Shown here in pieces: positions 1,992 through 16,548 of a DNA stretch of 24,000 nucleotides. Numbering within the stretch: the stretch's first letter is position 1; every line of letters starts with the position of its first letter. Made by a program: the position numbers and the translations under genes. The stretch is from assembly GCA_963788115.1 (NCBI GenBank), contig CAWBFD010000002.1, positions 1,003,109 through 1,027,108 on the forward strand, given 5' to 3'. This stretch comes from an uncultured Actinomycetes bacterium (GTDB lineage Bacteria; Actinomycetota; Thermoleophilia; Solirubrobacterales; 70-9). Below the pieces are notes generated by a model, which saw only the letters and a list, made by a program, of their open reading frames with translations, made no database searches and had not been told where the DNA came from.

Positions 1992-2409
1992 GTTCATCAG
2001 CCTCCGGGTAGCAGCGGCCAACCTCATATTCCTCTTGGCTTATCGCGTTGTCGCTCTCGCACTCCGCCGACTCCCCGCTGAGACTGGAAACGCAGCTCTC
2101 AGAATCAGACTTGATCAGTAGGAAGTAGGCGGCAGCCCCGCAAGCGACCAAGATAACCGTGCCGAGAGCGAGAACTCGAGTTTGGGAATGCGCAGCGTCA
2201 AGGTAGTGAGAGCCCAGTCCGCGCGTGTCCGGATTGTCCAAGCTGATCGCCTTCTGGCTTACCCGCAGCGCCGCGCGCCGGCAAGGGGGATCCGCATGGC
2301 GCCGATCGCACGAGTCTGGGGCCTGATCCGCGGTCATCAAGTGACGGGATCGGCTGACGCGTTGCTCGTATCGCTCACCGCAGACCTCTCGATGAGGTGC
2401 GGGTAGTGA

Positions 2410-3111
2410 TCACCGTCGGGCCCTTCCTCTTCCGACGCTGTGAATCACCGGATGAACGGTGATCCTGCGGCTGTAATCCATATGGACGCGGCGGACCGTG
2501 TAGGCACGCCATCCGGTCACCGTCACCGTATATGTCCAGTCGTTTCCACTGCGGCTCCAGTCCTTCGAGATCCGGCCTTGCGAGCAACATCCGAGGTATC
2601 CGCTCGCGCCGGTGTCGATACTGCGAGCATCCCCCGGAAGCTCGAAGTGATAATGGGCGATGGCGTAGCGACCACCCCAGCAGTCAAGCTGGAGCTCGCC
2701 ATAGAAGCCATCGAGGTAGCAAGGCCCCTGGCGGGATCGCGAATCGGTCTCGGTGCCGCTTCGCGTGCTGCTGTAGTGGCGCCACTGGTGGCGGGTGACG
2801 CGCTTATGGATTCCTCGGCAGGTCAGGTAGATGGGCTTCCCAGCGCGCGGCGTGCGGTAGCCAAAGCGGATCTTCGACGAGGAAAAGCGAGTCACCGGCC
2901 GGATCGATGTATAGGTTCGGGTTCCATCGTTCTTTAGTGCCCGCCCATGACAACTCCATCCGGAGCCGAACTTCCAACCATGCAGCGTTTCTGCTGTGAA
3001 CCCGAACGGGCCAATATTGGAAATGTTCAGCTCTTGGCCCGCGCTGGCGCTGCTAGCGCTCAGTGAGAGCGCCAGAAGAGTAAGGCCACAGGCAAGTACG
3101 GCCTTTTTCAC
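2410..3111 (-). CDS. Secreted Cys-containing protein of unknown function
   Basis: 233 aa. The GTG start overlaps the stop of the upstream gene (GTGA at 3108-3111). Signal peptide MKKAVLACGLTLLALSLSASSASA/GQE. The mature part has six Cys (SCHG, TCRG, PCYLDG, LDCWGG, GCCSQG). I recognise no domain. Confidence 0.7.
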   Translation of the reverse strand: MKKAVLACGLTLLALSLSASSASAGQELNISNIGPFGFTAETLHGWKFGSGWSCHGRALKNDGTRTYTSIRPVTRFSSSKIRFGYRTPRAGKPIYLTCRGIHKRVTRHQWRHYSSTRSGTETDSRSRQGPCYLDGFYGELQLDCWGGRYAIAHYHFELPGDARSIDTGASGYLGCCSQGRISKDWSRSGNDWTYTVTVTGWRAYTVRRVHMDYSRRITVHPVIHSVGRGRARR

Positions 3112-3743
3112 GCTACCTCCACTGTCGTAACTCGTTCTTCATGTAGGTCGACTGTTTGCGGGTCCCGGCGTCTGAACGCCAGCACCGCTGACAGAACGAC
3201 CATCGCTACGCCTGCGCCGAGCGTCAGGTAAATCCCCCAGCCCGGCTCAGCAATGTCGATCGTGCGTCCGAGAAGTTGCGCCGTGTCGTTATCCGAGATC
3301 TCCGATAGGACGCGAATGCTGTCGCCCGCGACGAACAGTCCGACGAGCAGCGGCCAGACCAATGCTCCTCGGGCTCGGGTCTTCGCAAAGGCCCATAGCG
3401 AGCCGAGCGCGGACAGTGCGCCGAGAATGAACCAGATGCCGTCCACGTCCATCCCGCTCTGGCTCACTAATGCGTTCGTGACCCACGGTCCGAACGACCC
3501 GACGATGATCCCCAAGATGGCGAGGCCCATCATCCAGAACTGACGAGGCTGTTCGGCCAGGACACCGACGATGCGGTTGGCCACGTCGTTGCCGGGCGCT
3601 TGAGCTGTGACCGTCTCGCCTTCGCGGCGATGGTCGGTCCAGCTCTCCCCATCCCACCAGCGTTCATCGCGCCCTTTGGGGTCGCGGTACCAGCCGGCTG
3701 CTGGCAGTTCGGTCATGTGTCCCACGTGCTCGTTCATGTGCAT
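3108..3743 (-). CDS. DUF2510-domain membrane protein
   Basis: The N-terminal AGWYRDPKGRDERWWDGESWTDH is the DUF2510 GWYPDP...RWWDG..WT motif. About four hydrophobic helices follow (FWMMGLAILGIIVGSFGPWV, GIWFILGALSALGSLWAF, ALVWPLLVGLFVAG, GWGIYLTLGAGVAMVVLSAVLAF). ATG 3743 has AAGG 7 nt upstream; ATG 3716 is an alternative start. Confidence 0.8.
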   Translation of the reverse strand: MHMNEHVGHMTELPAAGWYRDPKGRDERWWDGESWTDHRREGETVTAQAPGNDVANRIVGVLAEQPRQFWMMGLAILGIIVGSFGPWVTNALVSQSGMDVDGIWFILGALSALGSLWAFAKTRARGALVWPLLVGLFVAGDSIRVLSEISDNDTAQLLGRTIDIAEPGWGIYLTLGAGVAMVVLSAVLAFRRRDPQTVDLHEERVTTVEVA

Positions 3744-3814
3744 CTGATTGCCTTATCGGCAGTTCGCCGTCATACTTAAACGTATGCGGTCGAGTGCAGA
3801 CGCTCCGAGCAGAC

Positions 3815-3827
3815 ATGCGTCACGCAT
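3815..3827. promoter_or_regulatory. Perfect palindrome ATGCGT-c-ACGCAT, candidate operator in the divergent promoter region
   Basis: Read directly: atgcgtcacgcat at 3815-3827. A third TATGCG half-site lies at 3783-3788 and a CATAC-n6-GTATG inverted repeat at about 3771-3786. All sit in the 103-nt gap between the DUF2510 gene start (3743, minus) and the XRE start (3847, plus). Confidence 0.4.
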
Positions 3828-3846
3828 ATCGAATACAACTCCGGGC

Positions 3847-4168
3847 ATGGAGGCCGGGGAGGTTCCGCGTCCGTTTTTGCCCTGGCTGGGGCGCGCCTGT
3901 CGCCAGGCGCGCGAGGAGCGGGGGGTGGTCCAGGTGAGGATCGCGGCGGCGATCGAGGTAAACCAGGCGACGATCGCGCGGTTTGAGGACGGCAGCGCCT
4001 GGCCGCGGCGCCCCGAGGAGGTGCTTGATGGCCTACGCCAGCGAGCTCGACATGGACGTGCGCCTGATCTGGGTTCGCGCCCTGGTCATGTGGTTCGAGC
4101 ACGAGCCGGTCTTAGAGCAGGAGAGTCAGGAGCGGATTCGGGCGGCGCTCGAGCGGCTGCGGATCTAG
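3847..4168 (+). pseudogene. XRE-family helix-turn-helix regulator interrupted by a 1-nt frameshift near 4024-4030
   Basis: Frame 1 reads MEAGEVPRPFLPWLGRACRQAREERGVVQVRIAAAIEVNQATIARFEDGSAWPRRPEEVL. High GC3 then switches to frame 2, which reads MAYASELDMDVRLIWVRALVMWFEHEP...RLRI-stop at 4166-4168. Joined, the two pieces form one contiguous XRE HTH domain. Frame 1 downstream of 4027 has poor GC3 and an R/A-rich tail. Confidence 0.6.
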
Positions 4169-4196
4169 GGCGGGGGTCGATAGTGGGTCGGCTGCC

Positions 4197-4221
4197 GTCC
4201 GCTCAGGGCAGGCGGACATTT
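4197..4221 (+). terminator. Weak hairpin after the XRE gene: GTCCGC-n9-GCGGAC followed by ATTT
   Basis: Read directly: gtccgc at 4197-4202, gcggac at 4212-4217, attt at 4218-4221. The stem is only 6 bp and the T-run is short. Confidence 0.3.
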
Positions 4222-4427
4222 GCGCGAAGGTCCGGGGCCCGTGCGAGGCTCGTCGATCCCAATCCTCGTCTGCGGTCCGCGCGATGGTTGCGGTCCCGGT
4301 GAGAATCTCAATGAAGGGCTCGACCGGGAACCCACCTCCCTCCAGCCACTCGAAGGGTGAATGGGCCGTCGCGCGCCGGGAAACTCATCGCGGGGCCGTC
4401 GGGCTGCTGGACAGGCGGCGGGCCCGC

Positions 4428-6092
4428 TCAGACCGGTCGTGCGGCGCTTGCTGCCAAGCGGGTCTCGACCACCGTCTCCGCCTCGGCCGCACTCTCGCTG
4501 TAGCCGCTCACGGTGGGCACGAAGTGGCGTCGATCGAGCGCGTAGAGCGTCAGCGGCGTGCGCGCTCGGACCGTCGTGATGCGTGGGACATCGCGCAGCA
4601 GCGCGATCTCGCCGAAGGAATCGCCATCCGAGAGGAGGCTGAGCAGGCGCCCATTCTTCGTCACCTCGACCTCTCCGGAGACGATCACGTAGAAGCTGTC
4701 GCCCACCTGCCCCTGCTCGATCACGGTCCCGGCGGGCTCGATCGATTCCTCACGCACGTTACGGGCGAGATGCTCGATCGTGGAGACCGGCAGGGGCCGG
4801 AGCATCGTCACCTGGCGGAGGCGGTCGATGATGTCCGCCTGCGCGCCAAGCCCATCGTCCACCCTGACGAGGCGCGACCAGGCGAGGGCGACGACGGCAG
4901 GAGTCATCAGCCCGATTGCCACCAGCGCCCCCCTGATCCCGAAGAGGTAGATGAGAAGTGGCGTGATAATGGCCCCGAGGCCAACGGCGAGTGCCACCAG
5001 GCTCTCCAGCGCGCCGAACACCCGCGCCAGAATCTCATCGGGCATGAGGCGAGGGAACAGCGTGAAGTAGCCGAGATCCACCAGAGCGTTCCCGGCGCCC
5101 ACGATCGCGAGCATGACCAGGGCGATGAGCTCGGAGGGGAAGACCCCGATCATGGCGAGCGGCGTGCCCCAGAGCGCGATCCCCAGCCCTGTGTAGGCCG
5201 CGAGGCGTCGGCTCCCGACCAGGATCGAGGCTCCGAGCGATCCCACCACGGCGCCGACGCCGATGGCCGCCGTCAGGACGCCCACCCCCGAGTCCCCGGT
5301 CTCGAGGAGCTCGATGGCGACCACCACGGTGAACACGTTGAGCGCTCCCCGGGTCACCGCCTGGACCGCGCCCAAGCCGAACAGCATTGTCACATCGCGT
5401 TGTGCCGCGATCGCGCGTAGGCCCTCCGCGGTGTCGGCCGCAACCCGAATCGGGGCGGGCGGCGCCTCGCGCGGCGCGGGCTCGTAATCGATCAGGCTCA
5501 CCAAGAAGGCCGACCAGAGCGATAGCACCGCCGTAAGCACGAAGACCGCCTCGGGGCCGCGGACGTCGAGCAGCAACGCTGCGAGCAGGGGGCCGATGAG
5601 CGTGCTGGCGGAATCGAGCAGCCCCCGCGAAGCGTTCGCGGCGGTCAGCTCCTTCGGGGTCTCGCACAGCGCCGGCAGGAGCGCCGAGTGCGCGGGACGG
5701 AAGGCCGTGAACGGGATCGTCGCGATGACCGCGAGCAAATAGACGAAGACGACCGACAGATCCACGGCCATCACCACCGCGGCCGCCCCCACCGCGGCTG
5801 CCCGCATAACCCCGATCCAGATCAATACCCGATCGCGGCGAACGCGGTCGGCTACCGCCGTCGCGAATGGGGCGACAAGTGCCGAGGGGAGCATGCGGAT
5901 CAGCGCCACGATGCCGACGGCGGTAGCGCCCCCGTCCCGGAAAGCCACGACGCCCAGCGCGACCGTGAAGGACCACTCGGCCGCGTAGGCAGAGCCAAAG
6001 GCCAGCTGAGCGCGGCGCAGGTCCGGGCGGCGCAGGTTCGAGGCGAGCGCGGCGCCCCCCTCCGCCAACCGTCTTCCGACGGCGTCGATCAT
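4428..6092 (-). CDS. MFS transporter (EntS/MFS_3-like) with C-terminal cyclic-nucleotide-binding domain
   Basis: 554 aa. The first ~410 aa are hydrophobic with multiple (about 12) TM segments. The last ~130 aa form a CAP_ED-type CNB domain (GDSFYVIVSGEVEVTKNG...GDSFGEIALLRDVPRITTVRA...LYALDRRHF). Confidence 0.9.
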   Translation of the reverse strand: MIDAVGRRLAEGGAALASNLRRPDLRRAQLAFGSAYAAEWSFTVALGVVAFRDGGATAVGIVALIRMLPSALVAPFATAVADRVRRDRVLIWIGVMRAAAVGAAAVVMAVDLSVVFVYLLAVIATIPFTAFRPAHSALLPALCETPKELTAANASRGLLDSASTLIGPLLAALLLDVRGPEAVFVLTAVLSLWSAFLVSLIDYEPAPREAPPAPIRVAADTAEGLRAIAAQRDVTMLFGLGAVQAVTRGALNVFTVVVAIELLETGDSGVGVLTAAIGVGAVVGSLGASILVGSRRLAAYTGLGIALWGTPLAMIGVFPSELIALVMLAIVGAGNALVDLGYFTLFPRLMPDEILARVFGALESLVALAVGLGAIITPLLIYLFGIRGALVAIGLMTPAVVALAWSRLVRVDDGLGAQADIIDRLRQVTMLRPLPVSTIEHLARNVREESIEPAGTVIEQGQVGDSFYVIVSGEVEVTKNGRLLSLLSDGDSFGEIALLRDVPRITTVRARTPLTLYALDRRHFVPTVSGYSESAAEAETVVETRLAASAARPV

Positions 6093-6156
6093 GGCCCGAG
6101 CGCCTCAGCCCGGTGACCGCCTCGGCGCTGGGGCCCGCAGCTCGCGGCGACGATGG

Positions 6157-6900
6157 TCACCACATCGAGTACGCCAGCGACCGCGCCTCGCTCGCGTTCC
6201 CTCCGGGCGCGCCGGGAAGCCCGGGCAATGGGACCGGGCCACGGCAGAGATATGGCTCGCCATGGCGAACGCCGATCATCGCTCCGAACCAGCGCGCCCT
6301 CACCTCCAACAGCTCCAGGAAGTCGCCGCCGCTCAGCGCCGTCGCCGGATCGCCGCCATCGGGGGAGAACTGGCTGCGGTAGCAGCCCACCGCCGCCCCC
6401 TTCTGCTCCCAGACCTCGGAGATGTCCACCACGAAGGAGGGCTCGAAAGGCGAGTGCGCCATATAGGAGAACTGGCGCGCGGGACGGTGTACGCCGCCGC
6501 TGCCAACCCGGCCCACGCCCGCCGCGAAGCAGCCCTCCCTGACTATCCTCCCCGCCGCCTCGTGATCGGGGTGGCGATCGGTGTCGTTGGGGGCCAGGAC
6601 GGTGTGTGGCCTGGCGTCGCGAATCACATCGACCACCCGCGCCACCGCCTCGCGCGACCGCCCGAGCTCGCCGTCGGGCAAGCCCAGCGCGATCCGCTCG
6701 CTGAGCCGGAGAGTCTGCGTCGCCGCCTCCCGCTCCGTGGCACGACCTGCTGGGGTCCCCCGAGTTGCCCGCTCTCCGTTCGTCAGGTCGGCGACACCGA
6801 CTCGCAGCCCCTGCCGCACCGCGAGCGCCAGCGCACCGCCGCAGCCGATCTCCGCATCGTCGGGATGGGGGGAGAAGGCGAGGACGTCGAGCGGGTCCAA
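6157..6900 (-). CDS. bshB1: Bacillithiol-type GlcNAc-malate deacetylase, BshB1-like (PIG-L/LmbE family)
   Basis: VLAFSPHPDDAEIGCGG...GVADLTNGE...DRHPDHEAAG...FVVDISEVWEQKGAAVGCYRSQF matches the BshB1/PIG-L motifs (HPDD, DxHPDH). The TTG start at 6900 lies one nt after the upstream stop (TGAgTTG). The gene sits in an operon with a BshA-like gene. Confidence 0.8.
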   Translation of the reverse strand: MDPLDVLAFSPHPDDAEIGCGGALALAVRQGLRVGVADLTNGERATRGTPAGRATEREAATQTLRLSERIALGLPDGELGRSREAVARVVDVIRDARPHTVLAPNDTDRHPDHEAAGRIVREGCFAAGVGRVGSGGVHRPARQFSYMAHSPFEPSFVVDISEVWEQKGAAVGCYRSQFSPDGGDPATALSGGDFLELLEVRARWFGAMIGVRHGEPYLCRGPVPLPGLPGAPGGNASEARSLAYSMW

Positions 6901-6901
6901 C

Positions 6902-8065
6902 TCAGCGCCCCAGGAGATAGCTCACCATCAGGCTGTCCGCGACAAGACCGGTGCCGTCGGGGTCGCGGGACGTCAGGCTCTCGGGCACGATCATCGGTAT
7001 CGGCTCCTTTTCGAGGGCCTCGCGGAGCACTCTGTTCAGCACCATGCCGTAGATCGCGCTGCTCCTGCCGGCAACCACTCCACTCGCCAGGTCGTTGATG
7101 AGCGTGGGTAACAGCACGTCAGGACTCCACCGTCGAGTCTGGGCGATTTCATCGAACGACAGCTGTCGGCGACCGAGCCGAAACCGGTAGGTGGCCCCGC
7201 ACCGACAGGTCGCGACCGCGTAGGTGCCGTCCGTTTCGTCGCGGCGCCGGAGCGGGAGACGGGTTGCGTCGGATGCGCAAGAGATGCGCAGCGGCAGGTA
7301 GTCGTCGGCGAGCGGATGGAGCAGGGGGTCGATCCCGCCCTCCCTGAGCTCGAAGAGGGCGCGATTGAAGACCTGGATCACTCGCGGCAGGACGTTAATG
7401 CAGGCCTCGACCTGCTCCGTCAGGTCCTTCTCCTCCAGCAGCGTCGAGAGGCGTACCGGCGCCAATCTGATGCCGTTCTCGGCGAGGAGGAGGTCGGTGA
7501 CCTCGGCGCTCAGGTCCGCGAGGGTGTCCGCAGGGCTCCCCAGGAGGACGGCGCGAAGGTGCGCATAACGGTCCAGCCCGCGGGCCCCGACGCCGGCTTC
7601 GCCCAGGTATGTCCTGAGCCGATCCAGTGCCTTCCTGAGCTCTCGCTTCTCGATCGGGATGAACCGGGGCTCGCGATCCTTGCTCCCGGGTGGAGCCATG
7701 GAGACGCCGACCCGCCCGCCTCGCCGTGGCCACGAGATCACGGTCATCCGCTTGTCAGAGCCGGCGCGGTCCACATCGACCCAGAGCCCGCACCCTCTGA
7801 CATCGTGGTCCGCCTGCAACTCGCCGAGAGCGGCGAGCTTGGCGAACACCGACGCGCCGTAGTCGACGGACAGCTGCTGGCCCATGTATACGGTGGCGCT
7901 GGCACGGCCCTCGTCGCGGCCGGAGTGCCGGGAGAGGCGAGCGAGCGCGTCCCTCCCCGGCGGGGCGATGGCCTCCAGGAAGAGGCCCCGGTCGAGGAAG
8001 ACACCCTCCTCGCGCAGGAGCGCCGCGCCTCGCTCGGACGCGGCGAGTTCCGATAGGGCGCTCAT
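6902..8065 (-). CDS. Short, divergent BshC-like protein (candidate cysteine-adding enzyme) lacking the C-terminal coiled-coil region; otherwise hypothetical
   Basis: 387 aa from ATG 8065, which overlaps the bshA stop (ATGA). Two motif resemblances to BshC from memory: VYMGQQLSVDYGASVFAKLAAL...LWVDVDRAGSD versus GGQQAGLLTGPLYTIHK...FWVAGEDHD, and SPDVLLPTLINDLASGVVAGRSSAIY versus the S.NV..RPL.Q..LPT.A.I.GPGE..Y region. Its position between bshA and bshB1 supports the call. That it is a real CDS is near certain; the functional call is tentative. Confidence 0.45.
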   Translation of the reverse strand: MSALSELAASERGAALLREEGVFLDRGLFLEAIAPPGRDALARLSRHSGRDEGRASATVYMGQQLSVDYGASVFAKLAALGELQADHDVRGCGLWVDVDRAGSDKRMTVISWPRRGGRVGVSMAPPGSKDREPRFIPIEKRELRKALDRLRTYLGEAGVGARGLDRYAHLRAVLLGSPADTLADLSAEVTDLLLAENGIRLAPVRLSTLLEEKDLTEQVEACINVLPRVIQVFNRALFELREGGIDPLLHPLADDYLPLRISCASDATRLPLRRRDETDGTYAVATCRCGATYRFRLGRRQLSFDEIAQTRRWSPDVLLPTLINDLASGVVAGRSSAIYGMVLNRVLREALEKEPIPMIVPESLTSRDPDGTGLVADSLMVSYLLGR

Positions 8066-9228
8066 ATGCAAGCCCCGCCGACCTGGCGGCCCGGGCGAGC
8101 GTCCCTTGCGCCTCGATCGACCAGGTCCCCGTACAGCTTCTCGTAGAGCGGCACGATTCTCTCGCAGGCGAAGCGAGCGGCCTGCCGCCTCGCGGCGCTG
8201 CCGACTCTGCGGCGCAGCGATGGGCGAGCGAGCAGCTCGGCCACCGCGTCGGTGGTGGGGGCGTGGGCGCCAACCGGAAACAGGTGGCCGGACGTTCCAT
8301 CACCGACCACCTCGGCGAGACCACCCACCCGGGTGGCGACCACCGGGATGCCACTCGCCATCGCCTCCGCCGCGGCCAGGCAGAAGCTCTCGACGACGCT
8401 GGTCATCAGCAGCAGATCGGTCTCAGGCAGGATCGTCGCGACGTCGGTCGTGGCGCCGAAGAAGCGCACGGCGTCTTCCGCGCCGGCCGCGGAGAGCATC
8501 GCTCTCAGCGCAGGCAGCCTCGGCCCATCTCCAACCAGCCACAGCTCGGCATCCATGCGGTCGCGGACCGAAAGGAAGACGTGGGCCAGGCTGCGAGGAT
8601 CCTTTACGCCCCGGAAGTTCGAGACGTGAACGATGCGAGGCCGGTCGCGATGGGGGGACTGCGTCGGCTTGAACCGGGTGATGTCGATGAAGTTCGGGAT
8701 GACCAAGGGCGGCTCGCGCAGGGCGAAGAGATGGCGGGCGAGCCGAGCGTGGTCGTGTGAGACGGTGGTGACCGCGGCGAGGGCGTGCAGGCTTTCGCTG
8801 AGCAACCGGCGCTGGGCCGGCTGCCGGCCGTGGATGCTGACGTCGGTGCCGTGAAGCGTCGCGACCGTCACCGGACCCGCTTCTCCAAGCCCGCGGGCTA
8901 ACGACGCGGCGACGTGCGCGAACGGGACCGCGTAGTGCGCGTGCAGAACCTGGAGGTGCTCGCGACGCGCAACGCCCGCCACGAACGAGCGGAACTCGGC
9001 TTGCTCGTTGCTGCTCCAGTCCACATTCAGGCCGACCGGGATGCCCCCGTTGGCAGGGGGAAGGAGGGTGTGCAGGACCACCCCGCTGTCTCTCAGCCAG
9101 TCTGCCACCGGCGGCCGGCGTGCCATCAGATGAACGCTGTGTCCGCGTTGCGCGAGCTCGCTCGCAAGGGTGCAGGCGATCCGGACGCTCCCCCCGATTC
9201 CGTTGTGGCAGAGGAGGCCGACCCTCAT
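8062..9228 (-). CDS. bshA: GT4 glycosyltransferase, BshA-like (N-acetyl-alpha-D-glucosaminyl L-malate synthase)
   Basis: The N-terminus MRVGLLCHNGIGGSVRIACTLASELAQRGHSVHLMARRPP matches the BshA pattern (C-x-P-x-x-GGS...RGH-x-VH). GT4 C-terminal motif: ESFCLAAAEAMASGIPVVATRVGGLAEVVGDGTSGHLF. ATG 9228 overlaps the upstream stop (ATGA). Confidence 0.8.
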   Translation of the reverse strand: MRVGLLCHNGIGGSVRIACTLASELAQRGHSVHLMARRPPVADWLRDSGVVLHTLLPPANGGIPVGLNVDWSSNEQAEFRSFVAGVARREHLQVLHAHYAVPFAHVAASLARGLGEAGPVTVATLHGTDVSIHGRQPAQRRLLSESLHALAAVTTVSHDHARLARHLFALREPPLVIPNFIDITRFKPTQSPHRDRPRIVHVSNFRGVKDPRSLAHVFLSVRDRMDAELWLVGDGPRLPALRAMLSAAGAEDAVRFFGATTDVATILPETDLLLMTSVVESFCLAAAEAMASGIPVVATRVGGLAEVVGDGTSGHLFPVGAHAPTTDAVAELLARPSLRRRVGSAARRQAARFACERIVPLYEKLYGDLVDRGARDARPGRQVGGACI

Positions 9229-12200
9229 CCAAGCGATCCGGGCTGGGTGGCCATTCTCTTCGCGAGAAGCATGAGAAGCGCCCGAGACACCTCCGGCTGG
9301 GCTTCCAGCAGTCGCTCGAGCTGCTCCTCCTCGAGCACGATCAGCCGCGCTGGGCCCCGAGCGACGATCGAAGCGCTCCGTGTCACCTTTCCGAGCGCCG
9401 CCACTTCGCCGATACAGGCCCCCCTTCCGCAGACCGTCAGCTCTTCCTCGGCGCCATCACGGCGCCTCAGGATCGAGACCTCCCCCTCGCGGATGACATA
9501 CACCTCACGTGCGGGATCGCCCTGAGAGGAGATCACGGTGCCGTCCTCCACGAGACGCTCCGATGCGAGCTTGGCCAGCGTCGCCAGTCGCGAATCGGGC
9601 AGCGAGGCGAAGATCTCCGTCCCCTTCATGAACTCCATCCTCTCCGACAGGCGGACCGCTGGGAGCGCGAGGAGGTTCGCGAACAGCCGGAAGGCCCCGG
9701 GCACCCCGGCGGCCAGCTGGCGGTAGAGCGAATAGCCGCAGTAGACATAGGTGCCGCGCCCGTAGTCGGCGACCATTAGCCCGCCGAGCCTAGGATCCTC
9801 GCCTGGATCGGCGCAAGCCAACAGCGGCCGGTAACGTCGATCCCACTCGCCAAAGAAGTACCGACCGCGCTCCTGGACCCACCCGTCGAAGTCCTCGTCC
9901 CGGATCTCGTTGGGCACGTGGAAGAGGGAGTGTTCGGGCGCGAGGAAGCGGACGGGGGCCCCCTCGTCGGTGACGCGATCGTGGGGCTCGCTGTAGCGGA
10001 AAGGGTACGGGGCCAAGCCTGGCGCCTGATAGCCGTACGGCTGATGCTGGACGATCAGCGTCCCCCCGCCTTCGATGTAATCCAGTACGCGGCGGGCGGC
10101 TGCCCGGAGCTGGGCACTCCTCGAGTAGGCACCAGGCCCAACCATGATCGCGTCGAAGCGAGAAAAGTCGAGGCGCTGGAGCTCCTCGTCGTCGACCACG
10201 TGGAACCGGGCCCCAAAGGGCTCCAGCAGCCCCGCCACGTCTTCCTCGTCGCCGGCGATGTAGGCGCAGTGCAGTGATCGAGCGAAGCGAGCCTGAATGA
10301 GATGAAGCTCGACCTCGGCGGGGCTGAGCAGGAAGGTCTCGCGAATGCAGCTCGCGGGATCGGGCTCGCCGGTGAGATGCGCGGGACCCATGCGCGCGGG
10401 CATGAGGCCCGTTGTGTAGCTACGCCCCTCCACGTGCACGCGATAGCGAAGCGACTCGCTGCCCGGCGAAGCGGTGGCGGGAATGGTCAGTGCGAACGAA
10501 TAAGGCCGACTCTCGTCGCCGCCGAGCGAGAGGTCGATCCCGCTCGGATCGACGGCCGTACCCGAGGGGGCCTCGAGCTCGAGCCGGCCGCTCAGGGTCC
10601 TCTCGGTGTGGTTGCGCACCAGCACGTCGAGCTCGATCTGGATCTGATCGGCGATTGGGTCCGGCTCGAACGGCTGTCGTAACGGCCGGCCTCTCCCCTC
10701 GCGCCGTTCATGGCGCGCCTGCGCACACACCACGGCGGAGTCGGAGCGTAAGGAGACAGGGGGGATGACGGCGGGGTAGAGCTCGCGGAAGCCGCCGGGA
10801 AAAGCGCTGCGCGCGACGGCCGGGGCTCGGATCACGAGACGCTTTCCTTCCACCTGAATCTGGCACTGGGCCTCGAAGCGAGGGGGGCGGAAGGGACGCG
10901 AGCAGTATCGCTCCGGCGGCCAGCGGTATGCGTACGGTTCCGGTGGCTCCACCAGCCAGTACGGGCAGCTGAGCGCAGCCCCTTGCGACACGCTGACCGT
11001 GAACCCCGTCTCGACGTCCGCGCCGGGCCTCGCCGCAGAGCCGCCGTCTCCGTCGTTGGCCGTTTGCACCCGGCAGTCAGGCGAAACGCGGAGCCGTGTG
11101 GCCTCGATATCGACGTCGAGTGGCCCGAAGTTCCAGAGGCGAGTCCGGACTTCGAACGTTTGTCCCGGGATGACGTGCACGGCCCCACTGCGGCACTCCA
11201 GTCGTAGGCCGAGGCATGCCGCGGCCGTCTCCTCCAGATCGTCGAGCTTCCGCAGCAGATACGTCGACAAGGCCACCCTAGGTGGCCCCGCGAGGCGGGA
11301 GTCGAGCTGTGAGACGGCCGCGCGGGTGGCCGATATTGCCGAGAGCAGATGGCGTCCCGCCGCGGTGGCGTCTGGGCTCCGGTAGGCGGCGAGCGCTCCC
11401 TCGATATGTCCCTTGATCCCCTGTAGTTGCTCCCGCAGCCACCCGGAGTCCTCCCCCGCATGGTCGGCGACCCCGGTGAGCTCGGGATCAAACCCCTCGA
11501 GGAGGCCCCCTTGCCGGCTGACATCCCCGCCTTCGTCGCGACTCGAGTCCTCTATCAGCCGGTAGTAGTAGACGAAGCGGCCGGGCCCGGGAAGCAACGC
11601 CATTCCTTGCGAGATGTGCTGGTTGAGCGCCGACCAGCCCTGCTCCTGAAAGGTTCGACCACCGATTGGATCCAGCGCTCCCGTGTCGATGCGGATCAGT
11701 CCCTCCCGCTCCAGGTCATCCCGCAAGGCCCCTAACGACGCCAGGTCCTGTTCGGGCATCCAGTCCCCGCCCACCGACTGATAGAGCCGCCGCGGCTGCC
11801 AAGCCTCCAAGCCCAGCCGACGGAGCTCCGGGAACAGATTGGGGTCGCCGGCCGCCCGAAACGCCTCGGCCGTCACTGCCCCCACGGCCTGATGGTGGCC
11901 GTGCTCGTCGGCGGGCTGTCCGGTCCAGCGGGAGATGACGATCTCCGGCTGCACAAGGCGTATGGCCCGAACGATCTCGCGAAGTACGGCCTTTCTTCCC
12001 CACTTCGCGAGCGTGTCGGAGCCGCTCTTGCTGTAGCCGAAGTCATAGAAGGGGCCGAACAGGGCCTCCGCTCCGTCGATGGCACGAGCGTCTTCGCTCT
12101 CCCAGCTGCGGAAGACTCCCAGCGCCTCGCCTCGGTAGGAGTTGAGCCGATTCTGCCCAGCCTCTCCCCGCGTGGCGGACCAGTAGACGGTGCGCACGCA

Positions 12201-12356
12201 GAGGCCGTGTGCGAGATAGGCGAGGAGACCGCTGTCCTCGTCGTCGGGGTGCGCTCCCACCTGAAGCACCGCACCGGCCATCGGCAGCGACCGGAGCCGA
12301 TAACTCAAGCCGGCGGCGTCGAGGGATGCCCCTTCCTGGCCAACCCGCCACCCCAC
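9225..12356 (-). CDS. Large LmbE/PIG-L-family deacetylase with GATase1-like C-terminal module and an appended cyclic-nucleotide-binding domain
   Basis: 1043 aa. N-terminal PIG-L motifs: VGAHPDDEDSG, ATRGEAGQN, DEHGHHQA. Residues ~700-890 (FDAIMVGPGAYS...GGTLIVQHQ...APYPFRYSEPHDRVTDEGAPVRFLAPEHSLF...DFDGWVQERGRYF...GTYVYCGYSLYRQLAAGVPGAFRLFANLL) match the conserved C-module of the ~800-aa LmbE-family proteins I recall from Bacteroidetes. The last ~130 aa form a CNB domain (VYVIREGEVSIL...GACIGEVAALGKVTRSASIVA). The GTG start at 12356 is preceded by GGAGGAG. Confidence 0.85.
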   Translation of the reverse strand: MGWRVGQEGASLDAAGLSYRLRSLPMAGAVLQVGAHPDDEDSGLLAYLAHGLCVRTVYWSATRGEAGQNRLNSYRGEALGVFRSWESEDARAIDGAEALFGPFYDFGYSKSGSDTLAKWGRKAVLREIVRAIRLVQPEIVISRWTGQPADEHGHHQAVGAVTAEAFRAAGDPNLFPELRRLGLEAWQPRRLYQSVGGDWMPEQDLASLGALRDDLEREGLIRIDTGALDPIGGRTFQEQGWSALNQHISQGMALLPGPGRFVYYYRLIEDSSRDEGGDVSRQGGLLEGFDPELTGVADHAGEDSGWLREQLQGIKGHIEGALAAYRSPDATAAGRHLLSAISATRAAVSQLDSRLAGPPRVALSTYLLRKLDDLEETAAACLGLRLECRSGAVHVIPGQTFEVRTRLWNFGPLDVDIEATRLRVSPDCRVQTANDGDGGSAARPGADVETGFTVSVSQGAALSCPYWLVEPPEPYAYRWPPERYCSRPFRPPRFEAQCQIQVEGKRLVIRAPAVARSAFPGGFRELYPAVIPPVSLRSDSAVVCAQARHERREGRGRPLRQPFEPDPIADQIQIELDVLVRNHTERTLSGRLELEAPSGTAVDPSGIDLSLGGDESRPYSFALTIPATASPGSESLRYRVHVEGRSYTTGLMPARMGPAHLTGEPDPASCIRETFLLSPAEVELHLIQARFARSLHCAYIAGDEEDVAGLLEPFGARFHVVDDEELQRLDFSRFDAIMVGPGAYSRSAQLRAAARRVLDYIEGGGTLIVQHQPYGYQAPGLAPYPFRYSEPHDRVTDEGAPVRFLAPEHSLFHVPNEIRDEDFDGWVQERGRYFFGEWDRRYRPLLACADPGEDPRLGGLMVADYGRGTYVYCGYSLYRQLAAGVPGAFRLFANLLALPAVRLSERMEFMKGTEIFASLPDSRLATLAKLASERLVEDGTVISSQGDPAREVYVIREGEVSILRRRDGAEEELTVCGRGACIGEVAALGKVTRSASIVARGPARLIVLEEEQLERLLEAQPEVSRALLMLLAKRMATQPGSLG

Positions 12357-12489
12357 CTACGCTCCTCCAAGCAAGTGCACGGGTTCGTCGTCTACGTCAG
12401 CATCGTCGGGTAACGGACACAGCCACCCTATCCGAAGCCTTCCGCTCCAACAAACGTCGCAGACCGGGCCAGACTGCCTAACTCCGCCG

Positions 12490-13428
12490 CTATTCGCACC
12501 CCGCTCCGTCGCCGTTCGCGTCGAGCCCGTGCGGGTCGGACCCGGTGACCGCAACGGTGCCGTTCAGATCCGCGCAGTCGACGTCCGGCGGGTATGTCGG
12601 CACGCAGGGGGAGTAGCCGGACTCGCATCCACTGCCGGCGCCGCCGGCGCTTGCGACGCCCCGCGCGCCGCCACCATCCGGGTTGCCGCCCGCACCGCCG
12701 CCGCCTCCTCCGACGGGCTTGTCGGTGTCGCCGCCACAGGTCTTTGGTGACCAGAGCCCGCGGGCGTGCCGGCGGGCGTCGGCCGCCAGGCGCCGGAACA
12801 GCTCCGCGTACTCGACGTTGGGCGGGATCGTGAGCGGCGCCGCATACCCCTCCTTGACGAGGGCCGCGTTGAAGAACGTTCCTCCCGCTAGCCAGAGATA
12901 CACGAGGTCTCGGCCGTAGTCGTCCACGCGCTCGACCCCTGGCAGGTAGTAGACGGTCTCTCCGGGCGTCATCAGGCGCGAGGCGAACGCCGAGGCCTCC
13001 TCCCCGTAGCACTCCTCGCCGAAGTACACCTCGGGCGTGTCGACCCCGATCAGGCGCGAGGCGCCGATTCCCGCGAGCTCGACCGTGTCCCCGTCGGTGA
13101 TCGAGACCACGGTCGTCCGCTTGGTGCGATCGGGGATACCCAGGGCCTCGGACTCCGGCTTCTCTTGCTCCGGCCGCTCGGTTCGCTGGTCGTCATCGCC
13201 TGCACCGGACTGACGCGGCCGCCGGCGCGAGCCGGCGTGGCGATCGCCCCCCTCTTGGCCGCCATCGATCGGCGCCTCGTTGCCGGCGGCGTCGCCCGCC
13301 GAGGCGGCTCGATGGTCGGGGCGGGGATCCTCCCCACCGTCGGAGATCACGGCGACCGCGACCACCACGGTGATCGCCAAGGCAATCAACGAGCCGAGCC
13401 AGATTCTTCCTGATTGTCGCTGCCGCAT
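12490..13428 (-). CDS. Membrane-anchored thermonuclease (SNase) family nuclease with C-terminal Excalibur-like calcium-binding domain
   Basis: N-terminal TM anchor (IWLGSLIALAITVVVAVAVI), then a charged linker. SNase core: VVSITDGDTVEL...RLIGVDTPE...GRDLVYLW...FNAALVKEGYA. Gly-rich linker. C-terminal DCADLNGTVAVTGSDPHGLDANGDGAGCE matches the Excalibur motif. Confidence 0.9.
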   Translation of the reverse strand: MRQRQSGRIWLGSLIALAITVVVAVAVISDGGEDPRPDHRAASAGDAAGNEAPIDGGQEGGDRHAGSRRRPRQSGAGDDDQRTERPEQEKPESEALGIPDRTKRTTVVSITDGDTVELAGIGASRLIGVDTPEVYFGEECYGEEASAFASRLMTPGETVYYLPGVERVDDYGRDLVYLWLAGGTFFNAALVKEGYAAPLTIPPNVEYAELFRRLAADARRHARGLWSPKTCGGDTDKPVGGGGGGAGGNPDGGGARGVASAGGAGSGCESGYSPCVPTYPPDVDCADLNGTVAVTGSDPHGLDANGDGAGCE

Positions 13429-13748
13429 ACCCCTCAGGTGGTGGAGCTCATGCTTCCCGCTCCATCAGCTCCTCGGCCGTACCTGGCTGGAATCGCCGCA
13501 GGTGGCGGGCATGTCGCCCGAGCTCATTCATTCCTCCCTCAACGATCGTGTTGTCCCCGGAGCAGGTGCCCAACGCCCTGGGTGCCTGCTTGCGCCTCTG
13601 GATCAATGGTGCCATGCCGACCCGCCGCTGACCATCGTCAGGGTGATTCGAGGTCCCCGACCGACTTCGGCGCAAGCTCTCAACGAAGCGCGTCTTCGAC
13701 CCGGCCCAGGTACTGCTGAATCGCGTCGTCGGGCCGCGCTCGGCAGCG

Positions 13749-15842
13749 CTAGCGGGTCCGCGCGACCTCGGCCGCGAACCAGACCGAGAGCCCGCCGGCG
13801 ACGCTGCGCAGTGCCCGCGAGAGCCGGGGGTCGATCCGGTCGGATGCGCTTGCCTGCGTCGCGGCAACCCAGGTCAGACCCGCGCCCAGCCCGAGCGCCA
13901 CCGCGCGTCCTGCGCGCACGACTTTCTGCTCGAGCCGGGCCGAGGTGAACTTGACCTCGAGCTGCCGCCCCGGCCGGCCGCCGACGACGGTCGCCAGGCC
14001 GTCGGAGACCTGGCTTGCCCGGTAGCGCAGCCGCTCCACCTCGTAGATGATCTGCTGTGGATCCAGGCGCCCGGCCAGCCGCCGGGAGATGCTGCGCAGG
14101 AAGAAACGCCGCGCCTCCTCGATCGGGTCGAGCTCCGGGGCGAGCTCGGAAACCGCGCCGTCGACCTGGGCCAGCGCCTTGCCGACCATGACGAAAGCGG
14201 GCGGCAAGGGCACTCCGTGGCGAACCGAGATCGCCGTGAGCTGGTTGAGCAGCTCGACCAGGTTGAGATCTTGGAGTGGGCGACCACGGATCTCGGCGAC
14301 CACGGCCGCGATGTCGTTGCGATAGTCCTCGACATCGACGTCGGTGGCGTCCGCCACAGCACCCAGATCGAGCGAGACATCGGCGAGCAGATCGACGTCG
14401 CCCTGTGCGAAGGCGAGCAAAACGAGGAACAGCTGGCGGCGCGTCTGGCCCTCCAGGCGGCCGACCATGCCCAGGTCGAGCAGCCAGATCCTGTTGTCGG
14501 CCCAGAGCATGTTGCCCGGGTGGGGGTCGGCATGGAAGAAGCCGTCCTCGAGGACCTGCTTGTAGTAGGCCTGGATCAGCTGACGCGCCGCCTCGGTGCG
14601 TTCCGGGCCCTCCGGGGCATCGAGCAGCGGAACCGCGTCGACGATCTCATCCATGACCAACAGGCGCGCGGTCGAGAGCTCCCGGTGACAGCGCGGGACG
14701 CCGATGCGGTCATAGCCGGCGACGATCTCGCCCATGCGGACCATGTTGCGCGCCTCCTCGCCGAAGTCGAGCTCGTCGCGAAGCGCGCTCGAAACCTGCT
14801 GGGCGAGCGACGGGATGTCGATGATCCGGTTTAACCGCTGCGAGCGCGACGCAGGCCTGATGATCATCTCGAGCAGCGCGAGGTCGTTCTCGACCACCTC
14901 CTCGGCCTCGGGGCGCTGGACTTTGACCACCACGCGGTGGCCGTCGGCCATTCGCGCCCGATGCACCTGGGCGATCGTCCCTGCGGCGAGCGGCTCGGGA
15001 TCGAGCGAGGAGAAGACGTCCTCCCAGGGAACGGCGAGCTCGCGCTCCATCATCGACACGACCTCCGCCTCGGACATCGGCGGAACGTCCGACTGCAGGG
15101 CGGCGAGCTCGGCGACGTACTCCTCGGAGATCAGGTCGGGACGCGTCGAGAGGACCTGGCCGAGCTTGCCGAAGGTCGGTCCCAGACTCTCGAACGCCTC
15201 CCGCAGCCGCCGCGGCCCGTCCGGGTCACCCTCGAGGCGGAGCAGCCGCCCGGAGAGCTGGCGGATCCCGACCGGACCGAGGACGCGGCTGATCTCGCGC
15301 GCCCGGGCGTGCAGCCGACCCGAGTCGAGGGTTCCCTCGGACGCCGGCTCGCCGGTGGTCGTGTTGACGACCACCACCGTGCAGTCGGCGAGATGGGTGA
15401 CGCGATTGGCGATGTTGCCGAGCAGGAACTGCTTGCGACCGCGCATACCCGAGCTGCCGACGACGACGACGTCGGCGTCGGCCTCTCGGGCGGCGGCGAG
15501 GATCACCGTTGCCACGTCCTCGCCCGACTCGACCACGGCGCGGGCGCGGATCCCGTCGGTGGGCAGGGAGCGCTCGAGCGCCGCGCGCAGCCGCGCATGC
15601 GCGGCCTCGTCCGGGGCCGGTGCGGCCGGCTCCGACCCGGCCTCTGGTACGCCGTTCTCGGCGGCGGCATCCATCGCAACCGATTCGGGCTTCGAGGCGG
15701 GCTTGACCACCTGGATCGCGAGCAGCTCCGCGCCCGTCGACCTGGCAAAGCTCGCCGCCCATTCGACCGCGAGCGCGGCTCCGGCGCTGCCGTCGGTAGC
15801 TACCGCGACCAGGCTCGTTTCTGCACCCATCGAAGCGAGCAT
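13749..15842 (-). CDS. Universal-stress-protein domain fused to an ABC1/UbiB-family atypical kinase, with two C-terminal TM helices
   Basis: USP part: LVAVATDGSAGAALAVEWA...DVVVVGSSGMRGRKQFLLGNIANRVTHLADCTVVVV. UbiB part: LGPTFGKLGQVLSTRPDLISEEYVAELAALQSDVPP, AAGTIAQVHRARM, VVVKVQRP, DELDFGEEARN, FFHADPHPGNMLW. Start set at ATG 15842 (ATG 15830 is also possible). The ORF extension to 16049 is R-rich and overlaps the upstream gene. Confidence 0.85.
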   Translation of the reverse strand: MLASMGAETSLVAVATDGSAGAALAVEWAASFARSTGAELLAIQVVKPASKPESVAMDAAAENGVPEAGSEPAAPAPDEAAHARLRAALERSLPTDGIRARAVVESGEDVATVILAAAREADADVVVVGSSGMRGRKQFLLGNIANRVTHLADCTVVVVNTTTGEPASEGTLDSGRLHARAREISRVLGPVGIRQLSGRLLRLEGDPDGPRRLREAFESLGPTFGKLGQVLSTRPDLISEEYVAELAALQSDVPPMSEAEVVSMMERELAVPWEDVFSSLDPEPLAAGTIAQVHRARMADGHRVVVKVQRPEAEEVVENDLALLEMIIRPASRSQRLNRIIDIPSLAQQVSSALRDELDFGEEARNMVRMGEIVAGYDRIGVPRCHRELSTARLLVMDEIVDAVPLLDAPEGPERTEAARQLIQAYYKQVLEDGFFHADPHPGNMLWADNRIWLLDLGMVGRLEGQTRRQLFLVLLAFAQGDVDLLADVSLDLGAVADATDVDVEDYRNDIAAVVAEIRGRPLQDLNLVELLNQLTAISVRHGVPLPPAFVMVGKALAQVDGAVSELAPELDPIEEARRFFLRSISRRLAGRLDPQQIIYEVERLRYRASQVSDGLATVVGGRPGRQLEVKFTSARLEQKVVRAGRAVALGLGAGLTWVAATQASASDRIDPRLSRALRSVAGGLSVWFAAEVARTR

Positions 15843-16005
15843 AGGTCGGCTGCGGGGCGGGCGCAATAACGGGCGGTCCGTGGGCGCGGCTGGTTCCGAA
15901 GCAACGACCTCTCGCGTGTGACTCGTCCGCGGAGGCAGCGAGACGTGATTACTGAGGATCGGGCGTTCTTGGTCGGCCAGGAGTCGATGAGCGGCCGCCG
16001 CAAGC

Positions 16006-16548
16006 CTACGGCCGGAAGACCGCCTGCGCCGAGCCGTCAGGGAACCCACTCGGGAGGCGCCGGAAGGCGGCGAGCAGCCGCCCCGCGATCGCGACCGCGA
16101 ACCCGAATACCGCGGCGAGCACCACGGCCTCCGCCGGCCCGTCGCTGCGGATCAGCGCCAGCCCCGCGATCGCGGCCGCGAGCACGATGAGCACGACGCA
16201 GACGCCGCGGTGGAATCGCCCCGCTTCGGAGTGCGGCCACGGATCGAGCGCGCGTGTGATCTGGCGCCCGCGCTCGGAGTCCGTGCACTCGGGCTTCGCG
16301 GGGCAGGCGTTGCAGACGGCCGGGCGGGCGCGATAATGGGCGAGGCGCCGGCTGTGATCGGTGTCGATCCGGTGCAGCTCCTGGCCCTCCGGGCATTCCC
16401 AGAGGTCGAGGTCGGGCCGGAAGGTGAACCCCGCGGTGCGGTAGCGAGCGCTGCGGCGGTGCGAATGGCGCGCGAGTAGGTCGAGCCCGGTCGCGGCGAG
16501 CATCAGGAACACCGCGTAGCCGGTGGCGAGGATGGCCTCGGCGCTCAT
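16006..16548 (-). CDS. Membrane protein with a four-Cys zinc-ribbon-like module; unknown function, translationally coupled to the NO reductase gene
   Basis: 180 aa. ATG 16548 overlaps the norB stop (ATGA). One N-terminal and two C-terminal hydrophobic helices flank FTFRPDLDLWECPEGQELHRIDTDHSRRLAHYRARPAVCNACPAKPECTDSERGRQITR (C-x26-C-x2-C-x5-C). Confidence 0.7.
   Translation of the reverse strand: MSAEAILATGYAVFLMLAATGLDLLARHSHRRSARYRTAGFTFRPDLDLWECPEGQELHRIDTDHSRRLAHYRARPAVCNACPAKPECTDSERGRQITRALDPWPHSEAGRFHRGVCVVLIVLAAAIAGLALIRSDGPAEAVVLAAVFGFAVAIAGRLLAAFRRLPSGFPDGSAQAVFRP

Follow-up and report, generated by a model that had tools for sequence, protein, structure and literature searches.

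Bacillithiol and mycothiol pathways each employ a pair of PIG-L paralogues, BshB1 and BshB2 (Bca) in Bacillus and MshB and Mca in mycobacteria, and what is known of the regulation of their metabolism concerns mainly transcription and redox state. To our knowledge, no characterised enzyme of these four types carries a ligand-sensing domain. Here we describe a gene from a stretch of 24,000 nucleotides (nt), hereafter the window, of contig CAWBFD010000002.1 from an uncultured Actinomycetes bacterium. It encodes a 1043 amino acid (aa) protein, the giant, in which a PIG-L (LmbE) hydrolase domain is followed at the C-terminus by a cyclic-nucleotide-binding (CNB) domain, and it is coupled to a gene for a BshA-like glycosyltransferase. 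The giant shares with the four known enzymes the PIG-L superfamily, the AHPDD...HxxH motifs and linkage to the glycosyltransferase of the pathway, and the occurrence of two PIG-L paralogues per pathway is common to the window operon and to the BshB1/BshB2 and MshB/Mca systems. It differs from them in being four times as long and in having a helical bundle, two beta-sandwiches, a GH42M-like module and the CNB domain, and it scores far below all four equivalog models.

A second point of comparison is Pat/KATmt of mycobacteria (Rv0998, MSMEG_5458), a cAMP-activated protein acetyltransferase in which, as in the giant, a CNB domain is fused to an enzyme. Among NCBIfam models, that of Pat fits the CNB domain of the giant best (E 4e-11), covering that domain only, with 42 bits against a cutoff of 460. 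In Pat the CNB domain is N-terminal and the enzyme is a GNAT acetyltransferase, whereas in the giant it is C-terminal and the enzyme is a PIG-L hydrolase. The relief of autoinhibition by cAMP in Pat would be a natural mechanistic analogy for the giant. Mycobacterium tuberculosis also has predicted fusions of major facilitator superfamily (MFS) transporters with CNB domains, and other CNB-fusion proteins (e.g. Rv3728, Rv3239c), which are not known to be linked to thiol biosynthesis. The window operon encodes an MFS-CNB protein with the same layout as Rv3728/Rv3239c, which shows that CNB sensors are used modularly on transporters as well as enzymes in Actinomycetota.

Complete pathways for bacillithiol (BSH) and N-Me-BSH (bshA-C with or without nmbA) have been predicted only in Firmicutes, Deinococcus-Thermus (where BSH was shown chemically), Chlorobi, Bacteroidetes, Acidobacteria and a member of the Chlamydiae (Hiras et al. 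2018, PMC6282198). Full-text literature searches returned no description of LmbE-CNB fusions, of an LmbE enzyme gated by a cyclic nucleoside monophosphate (cNMP), or of cNMP control of bacillithiol genes, which agrees with a preliminary description of the window in which a ligand-gated version was expected to be new. PIG-L deacetylases and CNB-regulated enzymes such as Pat are both known; it is their combination, and the putative cNMP control of bacillithiol-type metabolism, that appear to be new.

The LmbE/PIG-L-CNB gene and its domains

The gene and its parts, all on the minus strand, are as follows.

9225 to 12356, minus strand: giant LmbE/PIG-L-CNB gene, an open reading frame of 1043 aa with a GTG start and more than 1100 homologues
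12362 to 12368, minus strand: Shine-Dalgarno sequence GGAGGAG, 5 nt ahead of the GTG at 12356, read from the sequence
11547 to 12284, minus strand: PIG-L catalytic domain (PF02585), residues ~25-270, with the motifs AHPDDE (H36, D38, D39) and HGHH (H152, H155)
11214 to 11480, minus strand: three-helix bundle, residues 293-381, seen in the AlphaFold model (confidence score pLDDT 84-97 there)
10677 to 11207, minus strand: first beta-sandwich region, residues 384-560, from the secondary structure of the model, without a Pfam match
10398 to 10646, minus strand: second beta-sandwich, residues 571-653, NPCBM_assoc/NEW3-like (PF10633)
9666 to 10334, minus strand: alpha/beta module, residues 675-897, weakly GATase1/GH42M-like, without a nucleophile Cys
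9246 to 9614, minus strand: CNB domain, residues 915-1037 (PF00027 and fold matches)
~9369 to 9422, minus strand: phosphate-binding cassette of the CNB domain, IGEVAALGKVTRSAS (G983, E984, R993, S994, A995)

The long N-terminus is supported by an alignment of 30 sequences, in which the invariant residues L17, Y19 and L24 precede the internal Met26. The Pfam PIG-L match (PF02585) spans residues 31-165 with 48.4 bits against a gathering cutoff of 28.2. The metal-binding and catalytic motifs of PIG-L proteins are present as AHPDDE at residues 35-40 and HGHH at 152-155, and H36, D38, D39, H152 and H155 were invariant in an alignment of 30 homologues that are 42-89% identical to the query. HGHH was aligned to HPDH of the BshB1 encoded in the same operon and to DH of LnmX, the best PDB sequence match. 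Taken together, the sequence features predict a zinc amidohydrolase of the PIG-L/LmbE superfamily that resides in the cytoplasm and is catalytically competent.

The middle and C-terminal parts agree with the beta-rich architecture and conserved C-terminal motifs that had been noted in the preliminary description. PF10633 (NPCBM_assoc) matches residues 584-641 with 23.7 bits, slightly below its cutoff, and is annotated in most homologues. The alpha/beta module carries the motifs PHDRVT, DFxGW.xxRG and AGVPGAxRLFxN, found in the giant as PHDRVTDE (791-798), DFDGWVQERG (822-831) and AGVPGAFRLFANL (883-895). The suggestion that this module is GATase1-like holds only in part. Ten of 13 members match Glyco_hydro_42M (PF08532), the trimerisation domain of GH42 beta-galactosidase, weakly and below the gathering score (best E 0.0013), and there were single weak matches to DUF4159 and GLMA_2nd. 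A sequence-profile search of the module against the PDB returned nothing, and the Foldseek list for the full model was filled by CNB matches. The Cys-His-Glu triad of GATase1 was not found, as neither of two alignments has an invariant or near-invariant Cys in residues 675-897. Since it lacks a conserved Cys, the module is not an amidotransferase and more likely has an oligomerisation or binding role.

The CNB domain was examined by profile and by structure. PF00027 matches residues 935-1019 (nt 9300-9554) over profile positions 3-88 of 89, with 67.4 bits against a cutoff of 27.5 (E 1.1e-18), so that the C-terminal ~130 aa, whose failure to match PF00027 would have spoken against an appended domain, do match this profile over nearly its whole length. 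The AlphaFold model, which was built on 30 homologues (mean pLDDT 78.5, pTM 0.71), has a pLDDT of 81-91 across most of the domain. In Foldseek it matches domains of PKA RI-alpha, PKG I and CRP/GlxR (E 5e-10 to 1e-8, probability 1.0), with target-normalised TM-scores (TMt) of 0.85-0.90 against isolated CNB-B domains of PKA RI-alpha and PKG, and the best structural matches are cAMP- or cGMP-bound domains. The cassette has the G-E-x-A...R-[ST/A]-A pattern. GE...R is conserved in 128 of 129 CNB-bearing relatives; 97 of these have R-[ST]-A and many others R-A-A, as in PKA; the cassette Arg is replaced in a few family members (e.g. P0066, P0039 and P0041). Between phyla, the CNB domain is 22-39% identical and the rest of the protein 41-49%. 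Judged by its sequence and model, the CNB domain is a genuine one of canonical fold with an intact cNMP cassette, and binding of cAMP or cGMP is predicted.

Distribution, ancestry and linkage to BshA

More than 1100 relatives of the giant were found among 5.8 billion proteins searched. Of the best 120, almost every one is 1000-1050 aa long and combines PF02585 with PF00027, mostly together with PF10633. The relatives derive from JGI, ENA, NCBI and Logan assemblies, on contigs of 0.1-5.6 Mb, and include 129 distinct CNB-bearing proteins from independent assemblies that cover at least ten phyla. Among species-representative genomes, carriers of the CNB form belong to Actinomycetota (the isolate Nocardioides immobilis among them), Chloroflexota, Desulfobacterota, Bacteroidota, Zixibacteria, Cyanobacteria, Planctomycetota (Scalindua), Acidobacteriota, Alphaproteobacteria and a Halobacteria metagenome-assembled genome (MAG). 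Databases already name the architecture automatically, as 'cyclic nucleotide-binding domain-containing protein' (NCBI) or as 'LmbE family ... /CRP-like cAMP-binding protein'. The fusion is therefore an old, conserved, cross-phylum architecture and not a peculiarity of the window's genome. Its occurrence is patchy: a phylum-wide co-occurrence matrix was unproductive, as the giant gene is present in just 5 of the 201 genomes sampled from the window's phylum, and BshA and short-BshC genes were found in 1 of 25 family- or order-level relatives of the window's genome.

The breadth of this distribution also bears on the possibility that an error of assembly or gene calling joined an LmbE gene to a separate CNB gene, a misassembly for which the preliminary description had allowed. 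We regard this as virtually out of the question. The reading frame is continuous, helix 898-911 of the AlphaFold model runs unbroken from the alpha/beta module into the CNB domain, and the same architecture is present in the 129 distinct proteins from all four sources, among them one from the isolate genome of N. immobilis. Misassembly, or a chimera, was rejected because the CNB form recurs in many independent assemblies and phyla.

Relatives without the CNB domain are, as had been claimed, widespread. A HMMER scan with residues 1-903 gave 1756 cluster representatives at E<1e-30, of which about 15 top ones are CNB-bearing (994-1043 aa); the remainder lack the CNB domain, are 800-960 aa long and align with residues ~14-897 of the giant. 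The relationship between the two forms was examined in a FastTree phylogeny of 154 sequences from which the CNB domain had been removed beforehand. All 34 CNB-bearing rows, together with three nested CNB-less proteins (P0210, P0222 and P0225), fall into one clade with Shimodaira-Hasegawa-like support of 100, and the CNB state changes twice on the tree, against a mean of 31 changes with shuffled labels. The fusion has a single origin, and the pattern is consistent with one gain of the CNB domain and one later loss. A hydrophobic run of at least 11 residues precedes AHPDDE in 8% of sequences in the clade and in 74% of those outside it; N-termini outside the clade include examples that read as typical signal peptides, and those of clade members are short and non-hydrophobic. 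Because of this difference the CNB-bearing proteins are predicted to be a separate cytoplasmic lineage, linked to BshA, and the common 800-aa LmbE family to be mostly exported, which does not fit the implicit view of the giant as a member of the common family with one extra domain. The signal-peptide proteins, which are uncharacterised and occur in Acidobacteriota, Gemmatimonadota, Verrucomicrobiota and Chlamydiota, are collinear with residues ~14-897 of the giant at 30-37% identity and share its PIG-L, beta-sandwich and alpha/beta modules and its C-terminal motifs; they differ in lacking the CNB domain, in their mostly hydrophobic, signal-like N-terminus and in never standing beside BshA.

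In the window, the giant gene leads a minus-strand operon in the order giant-CNB, BshA-like GT4 glycosyltransferase, short BshC-fold protein, BshB1 and MFS-CNB. Neighbours among the first four genes overlap or abut one another, and the last starts after a gap of 64 nt.

9225 to 9228, minus strand: ATGA overlap of the stop codon of the giant and the start codon of bshA, indicating translational coupling, read from the sequence
8062 to 9228, minus strand: BshA-like GT4 glycosyltransferase, 388 aa (TIGR03999)
6902 to 8071, minus strand: short BshC-fold protein, ~387 aa, assigned from a structural model, without a Pfam or NCBIfam match
6157 to 6900, minus strand: BshB1 deacetylase, 247 aa (TIGR04001, 255 bits against a cutoff of 182.5)
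4428 to 6092, minus strand: MFS (MFS_3/EntS-like) transporter with a C-terminal CNB domain, 554 aa (Pfam MFS_1 and cNMP_binding, the latter with 63.8 bits)

The leading position of the gene, its ribosome-binding site and the second deacetylase of the operon are thus as the preliminary description had read them. Its comparison of the giant with the BshB2/Bca paralogues holds as an analogy only, since the giant fails the BshB1, BshB2 and Mca models widely.

Domain combinations and gene neighbourhoods had been proposed as a check. Many relatives combine PF02585 with PF00027, and among 32 unique loci of the cytoplasmic clade BshA is the next gene downstream, in the same orientation, at 26, lies at another place in the flank at four, and is absent from two. 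Both CNB-less members of the clade that could be checked also precede BshA. Short BshC was found at 18 of the 32 loci, BshB1 at 16 and both at 14. No gene for BshA, short BshC or BshB1 lies within 8 kb at any of 53 loci of the exported clade. The glycosyltransferase behind the giant was scored with the BshA equivalog model in six other lineages, and each of the six exceeds the cutoff (282-319 bits); that of the window reaches 269.8 bits with TIGR03999 against a cutoff of 273.7, which is 4 bits short. The invariant unit is thus a giant LmbE protein, ancestrally with the CNB domain, and BshA. The family would extend the bacillithiol-type pathway, with short BshC, into phyla that PMC6282198 does not list, as is the case for most of those seen here.

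The short BshC-fold protein was assigned by structure. Its model (pLDDT 90.5) has B. subtilis BshC (4wbd) as the top Foldseek match (E 3e-12, query-normalised TM-score, TMq, 0.63), followed by class I aminoacyl-tRNA synthetases, and a sequence-profile search of the family against the PDB gave nothing significant. The family (~385 aa, without Pfam assignment) has an invariant GQQ..D, W.D.DR.G and a C.CG pair (C289, C291), as well as an RWS.D...N..(A/V)SG..(A/V)G.S(S/T)A.Y motif, and lacks the coiled-coil tail of BshC. Searches of the window's genome found neither canonical BshC nor MshC and mycothiol genes, the sole match for the latter being at the level of CysRS.

Other third genes accompany the pair elsewhere. 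A GlmU-like hexapeptide (LbH) acetyltransferase lies near it in L008, L011, L013, L024 and L086, where no pairing of short BshC with BshB1 was seen, and a 275-aa formyltransferase-like protein in L016 (5019-5846), L023 and L038. Clusters of these two types are without short BshC, and L013 alone has a BshB1-like gene. In five such genomes (G001-G005), which are MAGs of uncertain completeness, no BshC of either kind was found, and BshB1 scored above its cutoff in one; in the other four the giant is left as the candidate deacetylase. The alternative third genes hint at other derivatives of GlcN-malate. The hexapeptide acetyltransferase, similar to the C-terminal part of GlmU, is at 12171-12875 in L008 and lies upstream of the pair in L086. 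In L024, a 39-kb contig of the uncultured Halobacteria archaeon MAG, the giant-CNB gene is accompanied by BshA (306 bits) and an LbH transferase; this archaeal cluster could reflect inter-domain transfer or contamination during binning.

Cyclase genes also recur. Class III cyclase genes were found in the flanks of five other loci (L008, L011, L022, L025 and L026), and the genome of the window has at least 10 cyclase domains and 12 CNB domains. In L008, a Syntrophaceae MAG, the region 3784-7745 directly upstream of giant-CNB encodes a PDZ-GAF-class III cyclase (807 aa) and a B12-binding radical SAM/DUF4070 protein, the cyclase being two genes upstream of the giant.

Proposed function and competing explanations

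Beside what was observed directly, namely the architecture, the conserved catalytic and cassette residues, the coupling to bshA, the cross-phylum giant-BshA pair and the single origin of the fusion, we place a functional explanation in which our confidence is somewhat better than even. It holds that the giant is a cNMP-gated amidohydrolase that works with BshA, either on GlcNAc-malate or on the thiol or its S-conjugates, because the hydrolase site and the cassette are intact and the variable partner enzymes would be expected to modify a free sugar amine. The substrate, the ligand and the direction of regulation are what we infer here, and between the two kinds of substrate we lean to deacetylation of GlcNAc-malate over cleavage of conjugates. 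The giant would remove the N-acetyl group of GlcNAc-malate, the product of BshA, and so free an amine that the next enzyme would modify, in the window the short BshC-fold protein by adding cysteine. As a variant, it may instead hydrolyse the amide of the finished thiol or of its S-conjugates. Binding of cAMP or cGMP to the CNB domain would set hydrolase activity allosterically, and a second messenger from the many class III cyclases of the genome would thereby gate the flux through, or the turnover of, a bacillithiol-type thiol. The MFS-CNB protein may respond to the same signal, and an efflux-type pump would remove products. In clusters that consist of the pair only, the giant would be the deacetylase; in the window operon it may be a regulated second deacetylase beside a constitutive BshB1, or a thiol or conjugate amidase in the role of Bca or Mca.

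The arrangement points to direct control by cAMP or cGMP over a step in protective-thiol metabolism, a link undescribed so far. If true, allosteric regulation by a cNMP acting directly on a hydrolase of the pathway would add a new level of control, through which environmental signals sensed by class III cyclases reach redox buffering and detoxification. A wider proposal, which we put forward only tentatively and with more doubt than conviction, is that a second messenger directly gates low-molecular-weight-thiol metabolism via two sensors of one operon, one on an enzyme and one on a transporter, and that giant-CNB with BshA is the ancient core of a family of GlcN-malate-derived metabolites in Actinomycetota, Chloroflexota, Desulfobacterota, Planctomycetota, Cyanobacteria and a haloarchaeal MAG, with the third enzyme (short BshC, LbH acyltransferase or formyltransferase-like) deciding the product. 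Bacillithiol would then be just one member of a larger class of cNMP-controlled metabolites. The family itself offers a handle on a very large uncharacterised group (more than 1700 cluster representatives), and the cultured carrier N. immobilis CCTCC AB 2017083 (locus L017) makes the hypothesis directly testable.

Several points weigh against a cNMP-gated hydrolase acting with BshA. Similarity of the giant to BshB and Mca is very low: it scores 22.2 bits with the BshB1 model TIGR04001 (cutoff 182.5) and 35.7 with the Mca model TIGR03446 (cutoff 277.15), and the BshB2 model (TIGR04000) gave no match at E<=0.01 in NCBIfam. A bona fide BshB1 is already encoded in the operon, which would make a second GlcNAc-malate deacetylase redundant, and BshB1 tracks short BshC, as the 14 loci with both attest, which fits BshB1 rather than the giant as the deacetylase of the pathway at those loci. 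The LbH partner, being similar to the acetyltransferase domain of GlmU, could instead supply UDP-GlcNAc, and this weakens the argument from free amines. The absence of genes from G001-G005 is not proven, given the uncertain completeness of these MAGs, the tree was built with FastTree only, and domains of the CNB fold can bind ligands other than cAMP and cGMP.

The presence of BshB1 in the operon, and its co-occurrence with short BshC, would be accommodated if BshB1 makes GlcN-malate for synthesis and the giant is a Bca/Mca-like S-conjugate amidase, whose cleavage of thiol S-conjugates, or of the thiol itself, yields GlcN-malate and a mercapturic acid that MFS-CNB exports; a cNMP would switch on both steps under electrophile or oxidant stress. 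Mca is the best NCBIfam enzyme match of the PIG-L part (E 7e-9), an efflux-type MFS with its own CNB domain closes the operon, and the MshB/Mca and BshB1/BshB2 (Bca) pairs provide a precedent. Yet that Mca score stays far below its cutoff, MFS-CNB accompanies the cluster in close relatives only, and lineages that have only the giant and BshA, with or without the LbH or formyltransferase-like gene, and in which no BshC was found, would have no conjugate to cleave; we consider a dedicated amidase unlikely, while still giving it some weight. Somewhat less credible again is that the link to bacillithiol is positional and the giant acts on another GlcNAc-bearing molecule (an oligosaccharide, glycolipid or glycoside), as its exported relatives probably do, or serves as an oligomeric scaffold or regulator of BshA. 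The NEW3-like beta-sandwich and the GH42M-like module are typical of accessories of carbohydrate-active enzymes, the exported sister clade is unlinked to bsh genes and is followed instead by an amino-acid permease and an MFS_3 transporter, and the glycosyltransferase of the window falls short of the BshA cutoff. Against this, order and coupling with a cutoff-passing BshA are strict across phyla, the pair of the window is set among complete pathway genes, and a pure scaffold is unlikely because the catalytic residues are invariant.

The sensor part of the proposal may be questioned separately. CNB folds of CooA, NtcA, CprK and Clp bind other ligands, and the CNB domain of the giant might likewise bind another small molecule or only oligomerise, as some CRP/FNR-type domains do; the substituted cassette Arg of a few members, and the greater divergence of this domain than of the rest of the giant across phyla, would be in keeping with that. 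The cassette is nevertheless canonical, with GE...R retained in ~99% of the 129 relatives, the top fold matches are cAMP- or cGMP-bound domains of PKA, PKG and CRP, and cyclase genes recur close by, so that a domain of this other kind seems to us improbable.

Further observations in the window and at related loci

Two recent duplications were considered within the operon and rejected. The two CNB domains are 29% identical, and the giant and BshB1 match at the level of the HxxH motif only (E 5e-4). The cassette of MFS-CNB is FGEIALLRDVPRITTV, in which R-I-T replaces R-[ST]-A. MFS-CNB joins the cluster only in close relatives (L005-L007; in L029 it lies upstream on the opposite strand), and the end of the operon that it forms (4428) borders a stretch of lower G+C content, 0.62-0.63 at 2001-4000.

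Upstream of the operon and on the same strand, the region 12490-16049 encodes a 312-aa SNase-domain protein, a 766-aa fusion of Usp and ABC1/UbiB-kinase domains and then qNOR. No Rfam or sigma-70-type match falls in the intergenic leader (12357-12489). A search for leader riboswitches and known RNAs gave no Rfam match in the window, and no sigma-70-like promoter or intrinsic terminator was matched in 4200-12700.

At about 11 loci of Chloroflexota, Bacteroidota and Actinomycetota, a CBS-pair protein and a protein of ~1290 aa adjoin the giant-BshA cluster (L002:3592-7945, L004/L012, L010, L015, L017, L020, L022, L025, L027 and L030), and the CBS protein is present alone in L014 (Zixibacteria). 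The larger protein consists of FHA, an IDO-like heme dioxygenase, a CysJ-like FAD/NAD reductase and cytochrome b5; it was not found in the genome of the window, where matches were at the level of FHA only.

Exported CNB-less giants of Acidobacteriota and Verrucomicrobiota have neighbours of a different kind. An APC amino-acid permease follows them in the three loci examined, L036 (10963-13752), L046 (10678-13478) and L067 (10655-12136), and in L036 and L046 an MFS_3 (EntS-like) transporter follows too, of the same transporter family as MFS-CNB of the window. Upstream of the exported giant, this group has a gene for a Ser/Thr kinase or for a PAS histidine kinase.

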